The notes beneath the pieces are model-generated. The model was not told where the DNA came from. It saw only the letters and a list, made by a program, of their open reading frames with translations, and ran no database searches. Below are positions 11,465 to 57,136 of a DNA stretch of 64,000 bases, in pieces. A program made the position numbers and the translations under genes. The stretch is from a virus: the IMG/VR virus record IMGVR_UViG_3300027844_002282. One strand, written 5' to 3'. Within the stretch, counting starts at the first letter, position 1. The number at the start of each line of letters is the position of its first letter.

Positions 11465-11889
11465 GCCTTAAAAGAAGTATACAGATAGCATACGAAAACA
11501 AGCTCGCTCGCGGGTGGGACAGAACTTATTGGGCTATCGACTTGCATGGAACAATATGCCCTGGGGGATATTATTTAAACGATTTGGAGAACCAATCATT
11601 TTATCCTATGGCAGAAGAGGCGTTGAAAACGTTGACAGCAGATCCCGAATTGATTTTAATCTTATGGACTTGCTCACACGAGCCTTACATAGAAGGGTAT
11701 TTGAAATGGTTTAAGAAACATGGAATCAAGTTTGATTTCATAAATTCTAATTTAGAATGTCTCCCAAATGAATTTCAAGATTTTAGCAAGAAGTTTTATT
11801 GCAATGTTATTCTTGATGATAAAGCCGGATTTAATCCGTTATCTGATTGGCAGACTGTTCTTGAAGGGTATATACAATACAAAGAATAA
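11461..11889 (+). CDS. HAD-superfamily hydrolase-like protein
   Basis: IDLHGTI, ILWTC and ILDDKAG motifs. Confidence 0.7.
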   Translation: MSLKRSIQIAYENKLARGWDRTYWAIDLHGTICPGGYYLNDLENQSFYPMAEEALKTLTADPELILILWTCSHEPYIEGYLKWFKKHGIKFDFINSNLECLPNEFQDFSKKFYCNVILDDKAGFNPLSDWQTVLEGYIQYKE

Positions 11890-12347
11890 TGGGTAATTGG
11901 TACAAAACAGCTAAGAATAAATCCGCTAAAATGCCAGAAAATTTTTAAGTTGTTGAGAAGGGTCCCGACAATGGTTATTCATTAGACTGGAAACTATGGG
12001 CAGGCGCAAATGACTGGGAGGCCGGAATCACTCTAATGGCAGTCCTATTTGGACGTGATACACCTGGTCAGAATAGAATCTGGGTTGAGATAGATAATAG
12101 CCAATTCCCAGATGGAAACAATAACGATAAAAAAGATGACGTTATTAATGAAATCAGAGAGTGGGGAGATCTCGCTATTAAGACTTGGATCGATGAAATG
12201 AAAGTCTCCGAGAAAGAAAAGGGCAAAGACTGGGAGAACCTACCACTTGACAATTTCATGGGTGCTTTAGATTCAGATAAAATGAAACCATTTATATCTG
12301 AATGGGGATTTGATTCCTTATTATGGAAACCTACTGGTAAAAATTAA
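11889..12347 (+). pseudogene. WYK-leader protein with one in-frame TAA
   Basis: MGNWYKTAK start is in frame with ORF 12036..12347, interrupted only by TAA at 11946-11948. Confidence 0.6.
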
Positions 12348-12443
12348 AGACGATCCTAATTTAACTTTAGCCCCTCATCACCTATTAGACTTTCAAATAG
12401 TTCCCACCAAGTGCCTTGAGAACGTTGTGGTACAGAACGGTTA

Positions 12444-13052
12444 TCAAGCGTAAGCTTTGGTCTTCTCTTCTGACGCATGAATGTAATCGATTGAAACTTT
12501 CGGCACCAACTTGGTGTAATCGAAAAATATCCATCTCTTCATGTCCTCAACCACTTCGTCTTCATTAACATGTCTGAGGTATTCATTTATTTCATCCCAG
12601 GTGCTAAACATGTGCTCATCCGGGATCATACCAAACATCCAGTCGGGAATTTCGCTCTTCCCCTGTTTGCAGTGTATGAGGACGGGGTTCTTCATCCTGT
12701 TGGCCCAACTAATCTCTTCATGGGTTCCACAAGTTGGTATTGAGGTATCGAGATTAACAATTAAGAAGTCGGCCATATCGACCATTCTAAGATCAACGAT
12801 TCTCACCTTTTTCATTTCACTGGCAATCGTTTTGTAATCCCCATCTTCTTTTAATTTAGTCCTATACTGAAGACACTCTATATCCAACCCGTCCTCAAGG
12901 TCAATGGGCTTGTCGCATGGGTTAAGAACAACAATCCCCATCTTTTCGAGTATATCACCTTCCCACACCCGCCATTCCGCGCCCTGATCGGGGGCCTTGT
13001 CCATCGCACCCGACAAGTAGCATCTCATTCCCCATAACCTGTGATTTTTCAT
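12444..13052 (-). CDS. nucleoside 2-deoxyribosyltransferase-like protein
   Basis: YLSGAMD, VLNP, DLRMVDMAD and GTHEE motifs. Confidence 0.75.
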   Translation of the reverse strand: MKNHRLWGMRCYLSGAMDKAPDQGAEWRVWEGDILEKMGIVVLNPCDKPIDLEDGLDIECLQYRTKLKEDGDYKTIASEMKKVRIVDLRMVDMADFLIVNLDTSIPTCGTHEEISWANRMKNPVLIHCKQGKSEIPDWMFGMIPDEHMFSTWDEINEYLRHVNEDEVVEDMKRWIFFDYTKLVPKVSIDYIHASEEKTKAYA

Positions 13053-13650
13053 ATTAACTCCAGTGTTGTGTTAAATAACATACTATACTCAAAATTTCTC
13101 GTAATACAAGCAGGAAGGAGCCAGATCGGTGAGCCAAGTAATAATAATAATAATGGAAGTTGATAGTCAAATCATTAGTTTATTTTTGATTGTCCATCTT
13201 TTCGATGGATGGGGTGGCAGCGAGTTAGTCGTTGATAAAGCAACAACGCTATCTCATGGGTTTGCAAAAACACAAGTATTCACCCTCAATCAAAAATCTA
13301 AAATCGGAATCGGCACTGTTACTATTTCGGAATTTGGAGAATATGATGGCGTAGTTAAAGGCAAAGTTGTTTTATGTATGCGGTCTATACTTGAACTCTT
13401 CTATAAAGAACACGATAAAAAATGTTTCTGAAGGAGGCGCACGAAGAGTTCTCCTACCAATGGATTGTGTTGTTATAAGCCAAGACGAAACATTGAAATA
13501 TTATTTTGAAAGGAGATTCCACAATGACGAAGAAAAACTTGTTGAATACCTAAACAAAAATATAGGGCCTGAAATTGACAGAAGACATGTAATGGTCGTG
13601 TCAGGCGGATACATTGCCATAGAATTTTATTAACGATGTAGAATGATAGT

Positions 13651-54922: not shown

Positions 54923-55354
54923 TTATTCTTGAGTATCTGCATTTGGGGGGTAACGCAAAGAATCATCAGGCCACTCGACAACCTGGAGTATGGTAGGTGG
55001 GATTGTACCCCTGTATTCAAAAGTGTCCCTCAATATATCACTGCCATTCGAACCTTGATCAAAATCTAACAAGTCCCAATTAAAATCAGGCTCGGCAGGA
55101 TTTATCTCCAATATGACAACTGAGAACTCATAGCCTGACGGAGCATCAAATCCGCCTCTGGCCCACGAACGCGCCTGTCCTGTGTTTGTAGACAAATATA
55201 TGTGGTTAGGGCTCGATTGCCCCCAATTCTTCCTCATTCCAGGCCTCAAGCCTTGCTCAAGGATATCGTCAATGTAACATATGTACGTGGCATGATAGAA
55301 GGCTGAGATCTTTCTAAGATCAGATGCCCTGATTGATTTTTTGTACCAACTCAT
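54923..55354 (-). CDS. WYK-leader protein with an ADP-ribosyltransferase/Tpt1-like domain
   Basis: MSWYKKS; FYHAT...ILEQGL...IYLS...ILEI...YRGTIPP. Confidence 0.7.
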   Translation of the reverse strand: MSWYKKSIRASDLRKISAFYHATYICYIDDILEQGLRPGMRKNWGQSSPNHIYLSTNTGQARSWARGGFDAPSGYEFSVVILEINPAEPDFNWDLLDFDQGSNGSDILRDTFEYRGTIPPTILQVVEWPDDSLRYPPNADTQE

Positions 55355-55990
55355 AGTGTAAACCTATTTGAACGATAAACTATACAGGTTTATATTACAT
55401 AATTGGTTTAGGGGACCCTGTTTATTTACCGGCGGTAGTATCGTAGATAATCTTTCTTACTAAGAGGCTCAAATCAATAGCGACTGAGTCTTGCATGTTT
55501 CTTTCGCCAGGAGAATAAACAACAGCCTTTCCTGTTCCGCTGATATAGCCAAAATCAAAATTCTCACCAGTCTCTACAACGACTACGGGCTCCCCATAGC
55601 CAAAATATGTTTCGGGAACGCTGGAAATCCCGGCCTGCTCATCAGCGTTATCGCGTAACGATGAAAGGACCTGATTTTGCATCATTGCAAGATGAGCAAT
55701 GAGTTCATGCGCACCGATCTTTCCGTATGAACGAACAAATTTATTAAGATCAACACCTGAAAACCCACCTTGCAACTCTCACATGTAATGATCTCCCGTA
55801 TCATGATCCGTAACATATGATATAATTCCCATATAAATTATTTTCTTGATGACCTCTAATGTACAGCAAAACTCAAGAAAATCAAGTTCTCTAATAAAAA
55901 TCCCACAGTTAAAATTTATAACTGCATATATGGGAACCCTTAGAGGACAGGAAACCATAGAAATAGTATAAAGTTATATGGAGGAACCTT

Positions 55991-56701
55991 ATGAGAATTA
56001 TTAAATTAGCATCAGTAAATGTGTCAGTAAAAGATTTCAACTACCCAGAAGAATTATATGATCTGGGAAGCGTGACATATAAATTGATGCAAACACTTTG
56101 GACACAATTGCAAAGCATATTAAATGGTGCGGAATTCAATTACTTTTCCGATAACCGAATTGGAGAATATATTGCCCCAGATGGAGAAGATTTCTTTAAG
56201 CCAACAGGAACTATAAACCTATACCTCAGTGGACTCCCGAAAGAGAAATTGCCAAATATTATTGCCGCACTCAAATTTCTTATGAAAGAAATTAACATCG
56301 AACCAGGAGCCGTGTCAGGTATCGAAAATAGCGGAGCATACAGTTCGCAAGTCGTTAGAATAGAGGCGGTTAAGAATGATAATAAGGAGACTCAAGACGG
56401 CCCTCCAGAGATTAATATGTCAAACTCAAACGCGAGCGAAGTCCTTGGCGCATTGAATTATAGAATGGAAGATGGGTCCATTTGCATCGACGCATGGGAA
56501 ATCATTAGACGGATCGACAACACAATTCCACAAACTATTGATGAATACGTCAGACCGCCTACAGATGAAAAAAGCGAGGGTGGAGCCAGAGTTATAGACA
56601 TGGGAACCAACGCCGAATACATTAAAGAAAAAATGGATAGAATCAAAGATATCGCACAGTGGGCTGTTGATAACAACTATAGACAGATTTGCATAGGATA
56701 A
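55991..56701 (+). CDS. hypothetical protein
   Basis: GGAGG RBS and AGG-N19-GTA motif; begins MRIIKLAS. Confidence 0.7.
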   Translation: MRIIKLASVNVSVKDFNYPEELYDLGSVTYKLMQTLWTQLQSILNGAEFNYFSDNRIGEYIAPDGEDFFKPTGTINLYLSGLPKEKLPNIIAALKFLMKEINIEPGAVSGIENSGAYSSQVVRIEAVKNDNKETQDGPPEINMSNSNASEVLGALNYRMEDGSICIDAWEIIRRIDNTIPQTIDEYVRPPTDEKSEGGARVIDMGTNAEYIKEKMDRIKDIAQWAVDNNYRQICIG

Positions 56702-56704
56702 GAA

Positions 56705-57136
56705 ATGAACTGGTATAAAGAAAGCCAATAAGAAAATAAACTCTCAGAAGATGAGATTAGAAAAATAACCGTAGATGTCATTAAAAAAGTCTGAGCCACT
56801 GGAGTCCTTGAAGACAGCGATAAATACAGTGAATACCAAATGAGACTGTGGATCGATAATGATGCGGAACTTAGCAATTATATCTATTCCCTCGGAGAGG
56901 AAGTATCTGATCAAATAATCATGAAGATCCTCGGAGAAGAACTCGAAAGAATGGAAGAACAATATGTCTTTAATAGAAGAAGAAAGAAACTCGAAGATAA
57001 AGACCAACTCGCCCACCTTAGAGATGTAATAAGAGGTGTCCCGTGGAAAAGAGCAAAAGCAAATCTCATGGACATGACACCAGGATTCGCAGTCGGAGAA
57101 ATGATAATCGAAGATGACGAGATCGAAGTCGTATGA
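56705..57136 (+). pseudogene. WYK-leader protein with two in-frame stops
   Basis: MNWYKESQ start is in frame with ORF 56840..57136; TAA at 56729 and TGA at 56792. Confidence 0.6.

Follow-up and report, generated by a model that had tools for sequence, protein, structure and literature searches.

The WYK leader, seven residues of the form Met-Asn/Asp/Ser-Trp-Tyr-Lys-x-Ala/Ser, heads about twelve unrelated genes of an uncultured marine giant phage. We examined it in a stretch of 64,000 nucleotides of this phage's DNA (the window). A search for ATG-NNN-TGG-TAY-MAR, encoding M-x-W-Y-[KQ], gave 10 matches on both strands of the window, and 100 dinucleotide-preserving shuffles averaged 0.03 matches and never exceeded 1. 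WYK triplets occur 15 times in the six frames, and 10 of these 15 stand immediately after M-x. An eleventh start carries one extra residue, and a twelfth (MNWYKKSQ, 134 aa) is located some 390 bases upstream of the window. The start at 40895 on the minus strand has two ATGs (MMDWYK). The tagged starts in the window comprise eight intact genes and three broken remnants. An earlier, sequence-only reading of this DNA had listed ten W-Y-K starts on unrelated proteins. All ten exist at the coordinates given, and the tagged proteins of the window indeed share no BLAST similarity outside the leader; two of the ten, however, at 11889 and 56705, belong to broken or split genes, and one copy escaped the list.

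On the plus strand, pattern matching identified an 89-aa ORF at 27039..27308, whose start MSWYQISS has Gln in place of Lys and which matched no Pfam or PHROG family, and a 100-aa ORF at 35431..35733 (MNWYKISA). The 226-aa ORF at 33594..34274 (plus strand, MNWYKKAT) carries the leader as a 13-residue add-on, as shown by alignment with its homologue P0003 (44% identity), whose start aligns to position 14 and is preceded two codons upstream by a stop codon. Pattern matching on the minus strand gave ORFs of 251 aa at 39884..40639 (MDWYKSAQ), 84 aa at 40641..40895 (MMDWYKKA) and 143 aa at 54923..55354 (MSWYKKSI), as well as a micro-ORF of 45 aa at 35728..35865, the poly-Lys microprotein of the earlier reading, in which MDWYKKYIEAG is followed by a run of 11 Lys. 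The CCA-adding/HD enzyme proposed there was likewise recovered by Pfam: the 532-aa product of 36705..38303 (minus strand, MDWYKKTY) harbors PolyA_pol, RNAbd and HD domains, with leader and linker placed ahead of the nucleotidyltransferase head domain, which is matched from residue 49.

The first of the broken genes (11889..12347, plus strand) starts MGNWYKTA and reaches a TAA after 19 codons, the frame being open again through ORF 12036-12347. The second (56705..57136, plus strand) starts MNWYKESQ and reaches a TAA after 8 codons, followed by a later in-frame TGA and by ORF 56840-57136 in the same frame. Because both leaders are in frame with these ORFs, we regard the genes as broken or split. 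Recoding of the stops was considered and ruled out, since they are of mixed type (TAA and TGA). The third remnant, the copy that was missing from the list, is a truncated ORF of 30 codons at 59525..59617 on the minus strand (MNWYKISI). A second tag type had also been suggested. One of its members, MRIIKLAS, fits the template of the WYK leader in degenerate form (hydrophobic-hydrophobic-K-x-A-S) and starts a 236-aa ORF at 55991..56701 (plus strand), homologues of which start MNWFKKISS and MNWYR...VKKIAS in the relatives G015 and G002; for the other two, MIIKTK and MIKIS, no support was found. Most tagged starts were thought to lie behind an AGG-N19-GWA motif, but this motif occurs within 60 nt upstream of 4 of the 11 tagged starts, compared with 11 of 106 gene starts overall.

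The presence of up to four ADP-ribosyltransferase (ART)-like proteins is not established. The signs consist of motif-level resemblances (VYHGT, FYHAT) and of weak leads in the Atlas that point to Arr/PARP/Tpt1. Searches of Pfam and PHROGs returned no ART family among the window's tagged proteins, and hhalign comparisons of the candidates aligned the leader alone. The product of 39884..40639 carries a VYHGT...FTS...EID signature in its C-terminal half; its AF2 model (pLDDT 48) is too poor to use. A homologue of this protein in IMG/VR contig G017 (36% identity) is likewise tagged (MNWYKQAQ), and an ART-PolyVal domain was matched in one tagged protein of a relative.

Codon usage and homologue comparisons support a modular, portable tag of seven to eight residues that acts at the level of the peptide, being neither a nucleotide element nor a product of paralogy. 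The codons of the motif differ, as had been noted: Tyr is encoded by TAT in six cases and TAC in five, and position 2 by AAT, AAC, GAT, GAC or AGT. Likewise, 89 tags in relatives use AAC (45) and AAT (36) for Asn and AAA (75) and AAG (14) for Lys. The DNA upstream of the tagged starts is unrelated between genes, and P0003 does without the leader. Furthermore, long ORFs of relatives, among them those for CCA-type and PcfJ-like proteins, contain NWYK internally or close to the C-terminus. The CCA-type enzymes of the relatives carry the motif at positions other than the N-terminus, and a second PolyA_pol protein of the window phage has NSWYRKAQ at residue 226.

These observations bear on two simpler explanations. 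The sequence-only reading had itself named a nucleotide-level translation-initiation element as the explanation that would count against a tag; the varying codons and the internal and C-terminal copies do not fit it. More broadly, an element acting on the nucleotide level or through the nascent peptide could boost translation initiation at genes with a weak Shine-Dalgarno sequence, and we consider this extremely improbable. Most tagged genes of the window do lack a clear Shine-Dalgarno sequence, and AAC accounts for 56% of tag Asn codons in relatives versus 21% in gene bodies, a mild effect on codon choice at the start. Yet both codons are in use for Tyr, Asn and Lys, some motif copies are separated from the nearest start by hundreds of codons or stand only a few residues ahead of a stop, and all copies of TGGTAYAAR beyond chance follow ATG-NNN in frame, none of them being a free DNA element. 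Common descent or recombination, by which a functionless 5' gene cassette would be copied between genes, is very unlikely as well. The tandem arrays speak in its favor, with eight genes of the G017 array being true paralogues that form one BLAST cluster and bear a longer leader (MNWYKxIKIALP), as does the gene turnover seen in the three broken copies of the window. However, there is no relationship in the upstream DNA or from codon 8 on, the residues are fixed although synonymous sites have diverged freely, and the motif persists between lineages with a terminase identity of only 28%.

The window phage belongs to a clade of huge phages resembling Bacillus phage G. Its major capsid protein (L126:22323-23189) shares 81% identity with the one encoded by tag-bearing IMG/VR genomes of 300-550 kb and 55% with phage G gp27. 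The usual leader in the relatives is MNWYKxAQ, and in the window phage M-[N/D/S]-W-Y-K-x-[A/S]. The DNA pattern for MNWYKxAQ matched 37 IMG/VR stretches, often several per contig, and complete genomes of relatives hold 3 to 14 copies versus 0 to 1 for a reversed-pattern control. BLAST clustering sorted approximately 90 tagged proteins of relatives into 64 sequence families; their genes often form tandem arrays. Across 596 Gb of cellular (prokaryotic) genomes the same pattern yielded 11 stretches, approximately the number expected by chance; two of the 11 lie on phage-like contigs and none represents a conserved cellular family with the leader. Judging from these searches, the leader is a virus-specific motif, and our literature search found no publication on it. 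Cargo domains in the relatives include ART-PolyVal, GNAT, Zeta toxin, SLT, Tad6, kinases and methyltransferases, and by its domain content this cargo resembles injected effectors. It also includes a glucose-6-phosphate dehydrogenase and a phosphoribosyltransferase-like protein, for which there is no obvious reason for injection.

We compared the leader with the head proteins of the same phages. The AF2 model of the protease domain (L126:10001-10840; mean pLDDT 73) matches T4 gp21 best (5jbl, probability 1.00), followed by herpesvirus proteases. The protease is 46% identical to phage G gp19, and the PHROG 'head maturation protease' matches a homologue. According to the predicted structure, the protease has the T4 gp21/assemblin fold. 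In each of 15 relatives, the prohead protease-scaffold opens with M-(x)-hydrophobic-x-K-x-A/S, the Lys being invariant and an Ala standing two positions on in 14 of the 15; the protein of the window phage has IRKIAS at residues 16-21. The capsid protein opens with a looser M-(x)-hydrophobic-x-K in the window phage and in 14 relatives, 15 genomes in all, and in nine of them the second residue after the Lys is A, S or G. The template without W-Y occurs at the N-terminus of only 4 of 642 proteins of G001. Inside the protease-scaffold, hydrophobic-x-K-x-[AS]-small is enriched about 3-4 fold: the window phage has 9 sites versus 2.3 expected (0 of 2000 shuffles reach 9), G006 has 15 versus 4.0 and G001 has 7 versus 2.7. 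Five other large proteins of the window phage display no such excess. Several of the sites align between distant homologues, one of them directly after the protease domain. The template fixes three or four positions only, and the strictly conserved N-W-Y of the tags is missing from the capsid and protease proteins. As read from the sequences, the sharing of the template with protease-scaffold and capsid is a new finding that supports a concrete link to head assembly.

Since the capsid and the head-maturation protease share this N-terminal pattern, the leader is most likely a tag for head loading and cleavage. Specifically, we see about an even chance that it is a head-targeting propeptide which works like the T4 capsid-targeting sequence (CTS) and is cut by the prohead protease. 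The leader would allow enzymes that are otherwise unrelated to assemble together with the scaffold/protease core within the prohead; in the window this cargo includes the CCA-adding enzyme as well as several small proteins that carry ART-like signatures. It would then serve as a putative site for the prohead protease of the gp21/assemblin type, probably cut after the A/S at position 7 of the leader. The freed enzymes may remain in the head and could exit with the DNA at the next infection. We infer that the tagged proteins would be synthesized late, packaged, cleaved at the motif and injected.

In T4, an N-terminal CTS of about 10 aa loads foreign proteins into the core, which gp21 then digests, and the CTS of the internal proteins IPII and IPIII is removed by the prohead protease gp21 (PMC9958956). 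Likewise, the WYK leader is a short N-terminal peptide on otherwise unrelated, non-essential proteins of one phage, this phage encodes a prohead protease with a predicted gp21/assemblin fold, and the template is also found on core and shell proteins. T4 packages the ADP-ribosyltransferase Alt, and ART-like signatures and ART-PolyVal occur among the tagged proteins here. In contrast, the two peptides have no sequence similarity or common pattern (MKTYQEFIAE in T4, MNWYKxAQ here), so that the leader is CTS-like in its working at best and not a homologue. The predicted cut would follow Ala/Ser and not Glu. The cargo here is far larger and more diverse, with 64 sequence families among the sampled relatives and 3-15 tagged genes, frequently in tandem, in each genome or contig, and the WYK motif is also internal and near C-termini. 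Packaging is demonstrated for T4, whereas for the WYK-tagged proteins we infer it.

Herpesviruses offer a second parallel. The R and M sites of pseudorabies virus UL26 are YLQA-T and VQA-S (PMC4498786). As in UL26/assemblin, the protease domain of the window phage is joined in one protein with a long scaffold-like region (1754 aa), herpesvirus proteases are the model's next matches after T4 gp21, and a conserved hydrophobic-x-K-x-A-S/G directly after the protease domain occupies the place of the R site in UL26. W-Y-K-x-A fits the P4-Tyr/P1-Ala template of assemblin sites (Y-x-x-A, with S or T across the cut), at which cleavage would be predicted here. Unlike in those sites, the leader has a fixed Lys, which has no counterpart there, and it resides in a bacteriophage. 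To our knowledge, herpesviruses do not mark accessory enzymes with a protease site as a portable tag. A third comparison is with the polyvalent proteins found in phages and conjugative elements, multi-domain effectors that presumably enter the cell along with the injected DNA, according to work cited in PMC7824862. They overlap with the tagged proteins in ART-PolyVal, GNAT, Zeta toxin, SLT, methyltransferase and PcfJ-like domains, but the tagged proteins are mostly encoded by separate small genes, each with its own leader, and not by one giant gene.

In Staphylococcus phage 80alpha, an N-terminal motif common to the capsid, the scaffold and ribosomal protein L27 is cut by the host protease Prp. 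The likeness lies in a short N-terminal peptide common to capsid and scaffold, which in 80alpha one protease removes. In 80alpha a host enzyme acts as the reader of a motif copied from a host protein, whereas here a phage protease is the likely reader. A host-protein mimic of this kind was rejected, given that the leader stands at chance level in the 596 Gb of cellular genomes and marks no conserved family there.

Alternatively, the leader could be a processing signal only. An accessory phage protease, papain-, subtilisin- or trypsin-like depending on the genome, would cut it in the cytoplasm and thereby trim, activate or separate modules of accessory enzymes or polyproteins, with no capsid loading. 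Tag arrays in G001 and G025 are immediately preceded by a Peptidase_C1 gene, such a gene also stands between tagged genes in G009, and the array of 15 genes in G017 has a Peptidase_S8 gene at its head. Accessory proteases of another class at the head of several arrays suggest a different processing enzyme. The window phage has two Trypsin_2 peptidases: an untagged one at 19688..20551 (plus strand), a possible alternative processing enzyme, and a second copy near the terminase gene, upstream of the window. W-Y-K would suit papain-like and trypsin-like enzymes with a specificity for a hydrophobic P2 and a basic P1, and internal motif copies stand between modules of long proteins. Still, we consider this reading unlikely: Peptidase_C1 occurs in just 6 of 28 records with tags and in 2 of 5 complete genomes, lying far from any tag in G003, no papain-like gene was found in the 100 kb of the window phage's sequence that was covered, the trypsin-like gene has no homologue in G001, and the template shared by capsid and protease-scaffold is left unexplained.

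It is more doubtful that the leader is a docking or degradation signal whose reader, a host machine or a phage hub, is not the head, and which would set the lifetime or location of host-takeover enzymes. A candidate host reader is of the ClpX type, with the N-terminal recognition motif polar-hydrophobic-hydrophobic-basic-hydrophobic. In its favor, the tagged genes are located in an auxiliary/RNA-repair region and have sigma-70-like -10 boxes, as early or middle genes typically do; in G001 and G002, which are DTR genomes, several tags are close to the genome ends; and toxin-like cargo enzymes might need time-limited activity. Against this reading, the template is common to two certain prohead components, internal and near-C-terminal copies are ill-suited to an N-degron, and the motif is absent from cellular proteomes (chance level, 596 Gb). 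The motif is near-invariant across phages of 31-41% G+C with probably different hosts, which favors a phage-encoded reader.

Returning to the head-loading tag, the modular peptide proposed by the sequence-only reading is supported, and the template common to protease-scaffold and capsid and the predicted gp21/assemblin fold mirror the T4 parallel that it drew, but late expression is not supported. Nothing points to it: the tagged genes of the window lie on both strands, in an auxiliary/RNA-repair region with RNA ligase, Tpt1 and CCA genes, behind ordinary TATAAT-like boxes of the kind that also precedes replication genes. Their distance from the head genes (50-100 kb) and the missing sign of late expression speak against a head tag, as does the cultured relative phage G, which has no WYK start at all and whose capsid protein lacks the N-terminal template. 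Gene position in some relatives speaks for it: the capsid gene of G004 and G005 is followed by a tagged gene of the same orientation, and in G003 two tagged genes lie at most 5 kb downstream of the capsid gene.

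All ten starts that the sequence-only reading had named, which share the N-terminal leader M-[NDS]-W-Y-K-x-[AS] (the WYK leader, or tag), were found in the window. A scan with ATG-NNN-TGG-TAY-MAR returned 10 matches, on both strands; in dinucleotide-preserving shuffles the mean was 0.03 and the maximum 1. Translation in six frames yields 15 WYK triplets, 10 of which directly follow M-x. Eight tagged ORFs are intact: those starting at 27039 (89 aa), 33594 (226 aa) and 35431 (100 aa) on the plus strand, and those at 35865 (45 aa), 38303 (532 aa, a CCA-adding/HD enzyme spanning 36705-38303), 40639 (251 aa), 40895 (84 aa) and 55354 (143 aa) on the minus strand. 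The starts at 11889 and 56705 run into TAA after 19 and 8 codons, respectively, and since both share their frame with a downstream ORF, they are decayed or split genes. Stop-codon reassignment was rejected as the cause of the two interrupted frames: their stops are TAA and TGA and long ORFs end in all three stop codons, so the genetic code is not changed. A further copy at 59617 on the minus strand is truncated. An intact gene beginning MNWYKKSQ lies ~390 bases 5' of the window start, and no tag was found in the 25 kb beyond it.

The tagged proteins had been described as unrelated and as using different codons for the motif, and both descriptions held. Similarity beyond the leader is undetectable, Tyr is encoded by TAT in 6 tags and TAC in 5, and position 2 uses five different codons. 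The 130 bases 5' of the tagged starts are unalike when compared. The 226-aa protein has a single distant homologue (P0003, 44% identity), whose start aligns to position 14 and which has a stop codon two codons ahead of its ATG; therefore the 13 leader residues are an add-on. The Pfam head domain of the CCA-adding enzyme begins at residue 49. We considered that the leader might be a translation element, which is extremely improbable, or the result of cassette copying without function, which is very improbable; both ideas are poorly supported.

We examined the spread of the leader among viruses and cells. The DNA pattern for MNWYKxAQ, the form found in most relatives, matched 37 stretches in IMG/VR, many in contigs of 300-550 kb and often several per contig. 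Complete genomes carry 3-14 ATG-NNN-TGG-TAY-AAR sites each, against 0-1 for the reversed control pattern. Across 596 Gb of prokaryotic genomes, the MNWYKxAQ pattern gave only 11 matches, about the number expected by chance, two of them being phage-like contigs that hold several tags apiece. The relatives' loci that were read contain ~90 tagged ORFs in 64 BLAST clusters, and many stand in back-to-back arrays (15 in the tag-bearing record G017, 11 in G025). The window's 251-aa protein has a homologue in G017 that is 36% identical and also starts MNWYKQAQ, so the window form is a local dialect of the MNWYKxAQ tag. Pfam assigned the relatives' tagged proteins to GNAT (4), DUF5661 (3), AAA_33 kinases (2) and methyltransferases (2), with one each for glucose-6-phosphate dehydrogenase, Tad6, ART-PolyVal, cREC_REC, PolyA_pol, SLT, Zeta toxin and HicA. 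A search for relatives with the window's CCA enzyme returned none. Its best tblastn match, the 735-kb phage LR756501, was set aside: the 41 kb around the match are tag-free and the whole record holds one tag. Full-text literature searches found no description of the motif, and queries with the motif letters gave only noise.

The motif is not confined to starts. Two tandem ~900-aa proteins in a relative's locus (L043) terminate in NWYK plus 8-9 residues, and a 1235-aa protein of a relative bears two tags, at residues 1 and 636. In relatives, the motif also lies C-terminal to the domains of three PcfJ-like proteins and two CCA-type enzymes. The window's phage has a second PolyA_pol protein (811 aa), encoded near the terminase gene, with NSWYRKAQ at residue 226. 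Depending on the phage, CCA-type enzymes thus bear the motif N-terminally, centrally or close to the C-terminus, which excludes a pure start-codon effect. The placement is consistent with a linear motif for docking or cleavage where modules meet. The relatives' tags use AAC 45 times and AAT 36 times for Asn, TAT 81 and TAC 8 for Tyr, and AAA 75 and AAG 14 for Lys. In loci L008-L044, read from relatives, Asn is AAC in 56% of tags versus 21% in the gene bodies that follow them, a preference at codon 2 that the peptide model leaves unexplained.

Marine metagenome contigs as long as 153 kb encode proteins identical to those of this phage, and samples that contain it include ERZ23486727 and JGI 3300009409. 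Stepping upstream from window positions 361-840 through contigs that encode the phage's proteins led us to its head genes, and the contigs combined span at least ~219 kb. The large terminase lies ~20 kb before the window, a 1754-aa protein ~51-57 kb before it (10001-15265 of the upstream contig L126), and a 288-aa capsid protein ~64 kb before it (L126:22323-23189); a 167-aa protein is also encoded on the upstream scaffold. A ~288-aa major head protein is conserved at 69-100% identity in 16 of the 28 tag-bearing IMG/VR records, including all five complete genomes, and the capsid protein of this phage is 81% identical to it. Our capsid protein also shares 55% identity with gp27 of the only long-cultured megaphage, Bacillus phage G. 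The placement of our phage in a phage-G-like clade, which follows from sequence comparison, is new here. Between the gene for the 1754-aa protein and the decoration/capsid genes lies a gene for a 2071-aa protein with one AAA ATPase domain (L126:15399-21614), unusual for a head module.

The 1754-aa protein has end-to-end homology with fusion proteins of the relatives that are called 'head maturation protease'. Its first 280 residues (L126:10001-10840, a domain with a conserved SMG serine), modelled with AlphaFold2 at a mean pLDDT of 73, matched T4 gp21 (5jbl) best, with probability 1.00, and a series of herpesvirus proteases next. Searching PDB sequences with a profile of the protease domain gave no match, and neither did Pfam on this protein or on the capsid protein. 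A protease and a scaffold-like region thus share one chain (a protease-scaffold), as in herpesvirus UL26 (PMC4498786). The length of the scaffold-like region varies, the whole protein reaching at most ~2300 aa in relatives, some with inteins; that of records G004/G005 (L017:5776-8277) contains six repeats of E-V-I-T-Q-K-Q-L-D.

The N-termini of the head proteins resemble the WYK leader without its strict W-Y. In 15 of 15 relatives the protease-scaffold begins M-(x)-hydrophobic-x-K-x-A/S (MAIYKTA, MIYKFA, MLIKVA, MAMYKRA, MGFTKRA), with Lys invariant and Ala two positions on in 14 of the 15; that of our phage has IRKIAS at residues 16-21. The capsid protein begins M-(x)-hydrophobic-x-K in all 15 genomes compared (14 relatives and our phage), for example MSLEKRS in our phage and MINKRS, MAIDKKA and MAFAKNG elsewhere, with A/S/G two positions on in 9. 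Only 4 of the 642 predicted proteins of G001, a tag-bearing relative, start with the template without W-Y. Further copies of the motif stand at aligned positions within the protease-scaffold, as I-K-T-A-S ~40 residues in and as hydrophobic-x-K-x-A-S/G just past the protease domain, and gp19 of phage G has it at both. Internal sites number 9 in our protease-scaffold against a shuffle expectation of 2.3 (0 of 2000 shuffles reach 9), 15 against 4.0 in that of G006, and 7 against 2.7 in that of G001; five other large proteins of our phage show no excess over shuffles. With W-Y-K-x-A, the tag agrees with the assemblin R site in its P4-Tyr/P1-Ala shape; that site is YLQA-T in pseudorabies virus (PMC4498786). 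A complex prediction that paired the protease domain (42-250) with residues 1-40 of the tagged 251-aa protein scored 0.00 and was counted neither for nor against binding. The template on capsid and protease-scaffold, the protease fold, the internal enrichment and the contrast between cells and viruses are new here. A sister leader, MKIYKI[AS]x or MKIIKISS, which preserves the Y/I-K-I-A/S core of the tag, starts several small genes in relatives (L018:7200-8381, L026:540-1361 and 3174-3488, L017:2348-2599), one of them between a scaffold-like gene and a capsid gene.

[quoted passage not shown] By analogy, the WYK leader may be a CTS-like head-loading tag, a reading to which we give an even chance and in which we infer cleavage, loading, timing and injection alike. 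Accessory enzymes would be drawn into the prohead along with the protease-scaffold, the prohead protease would trim the leader after loading, and the trimmed enzymes would be retained in the head for delivery. The tagged repertoire overlaps with injected 'polyvalent' proteins (PMC7824862). Furthermore, a tagged phosphoribosyltransferase-like gene lies directly 3' of the capsid gene in G004/G005, and two tagged genes lie just 3' of it in G003. We also propose, tentatively, a clade-wide 'address and release' code, in which any MNWYKxAQ protein, with the tag terminal or between modules, would join the prohead core and be freed by the assemblin-like protease. The virion would then deliver, with its DNA, a changeable set of ADP-ribosyltransferases, acetyltransferases, kinases, tRNA-repair enzymes and anti-Thoeris proteins.

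Several observations speak against loading. The window's tagged genes lie far from the head genes, on both strands, among those for RNA ligase, Tpt1 and the CCA enzyme. Their TATAAT-like boxes are ordinary and also stand 5' of replication genes, N-W-Y, strictly kept in the tags, is missing from the N-termini of the capsid and protease proteins, and phage G has neither a WYK start nor the template on its capsid protein. We regard a docking or degradation signal read by the host as quite unlikely. The genomic position of the tagged genes suits such a signal; the template common to the head proteins, the copies inside proteins and the near-invariance of the motif in phages that range from 31-41% G+C do not. 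Cytoplasmic processing only, for which a protease beside the tagged genes would speak, is unlikely: Peptidase_C1 heads the tag arrays of G001 and G025 and also lies between tagged genes in G009, and Peptidase_S8 heads the G017 array, but Peptidase_C1 is present in just 6 of the 28 records. That count also led us to reject Peptidase_C1 as a universal tag reader, and the part of our phage that was read yielded no papain-like gene. These proteases (L051:4581-6659 in G001, L080:950-1801 in G025, L014:1498-2343 in G009, L078:8322-9407 in G017) are papain-like C1 enzymes in three genomes, one of them split by an HNH-containing intein, and a subtilisin-like S8 in the fourth; all are untagged.

If head loading is true, the proteins that huge uncultured phages bring into the next cell could be read from sequence alone, a set that is at present hidden in phages that cannot be grown, and tRNA-repair and host-modifying enzymes would act ahead of any phage gene expression. 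It would also carry the CTS principle of T4 over to an unrelated sequence, coupled with a protease-scaffold layout that otherwise occurs in herpesviruses, and would offer an easy means of bringing foreign proteins into very large capsids. Were the leader only a processing or sorting signal, it would still rank with the short peptide modules that phage genomes have been seen to reuse most widely. The idea can already be tested in phage G, a cultured member of the clade with the same protease and junction motifs. Consistent with loading, many enzymes are reported in purified phage G virions by particle proteomics, in which contamination cannot be excluded (bioRxiv 10.1101/2024.12.16.628780). Three small head-region genes of phage G, gp13, gp17 and gp38 (L141 634-900, 4752-5066 and 16915-17430), start (M/L)KRLI[SK]K[TSA][AS], matching the hydrophobic-K-x-A/S template; the stricter KRLI-x-K-x-A/S pattern finds only two starts, the third (gp17) being recognized by eye.

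Most tags had been thought to sit behind an AGG-N19-GWA motif, which in fact precedes 4 of 11. Promoter scans and inspection of the upstream regions gave no usable timing class. Upstream of 38303 and 40895, on the minus strand, CTTGAAGG is followed by 19 bases and GTAT(A/T)(A/T), the core of that motif; here a TTGAAG box lies 21 bases before a TATAAT-like box, a spacing too long for a standard sigma-70 promoter. CTTGAAGG also occurs 5' of 11889 with other spacing. For the two groups of putative ADP-ribosyltransferase-like tagged proteins, hhalign aligned the leader alone, and an AF2 model of the 251-aa protein (pLDDT 48) was too low for structure search.

Genes for a trypsin-like peptidase and a peptide deformylase, two enzymes that act on protein ends, lie ~200 bases apart at 19688-21385 of the window; G001 has a homologue of the deformylase and none of the peptidase. 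The second PolyA_pol protein (L097:10381-12816, upstream in our phage) adjoins a trypsin-like peptidase. The window also encodes an RNA-repair set of RNA ligase (25628-26287), Tpt1/KptA-type RNA 2'-phosphotransferase (35913-36560) and the CCA-adding/HD enzyme (36705-38303), with homologues in G001 at 39%, 46% and 27% identity, respectively.
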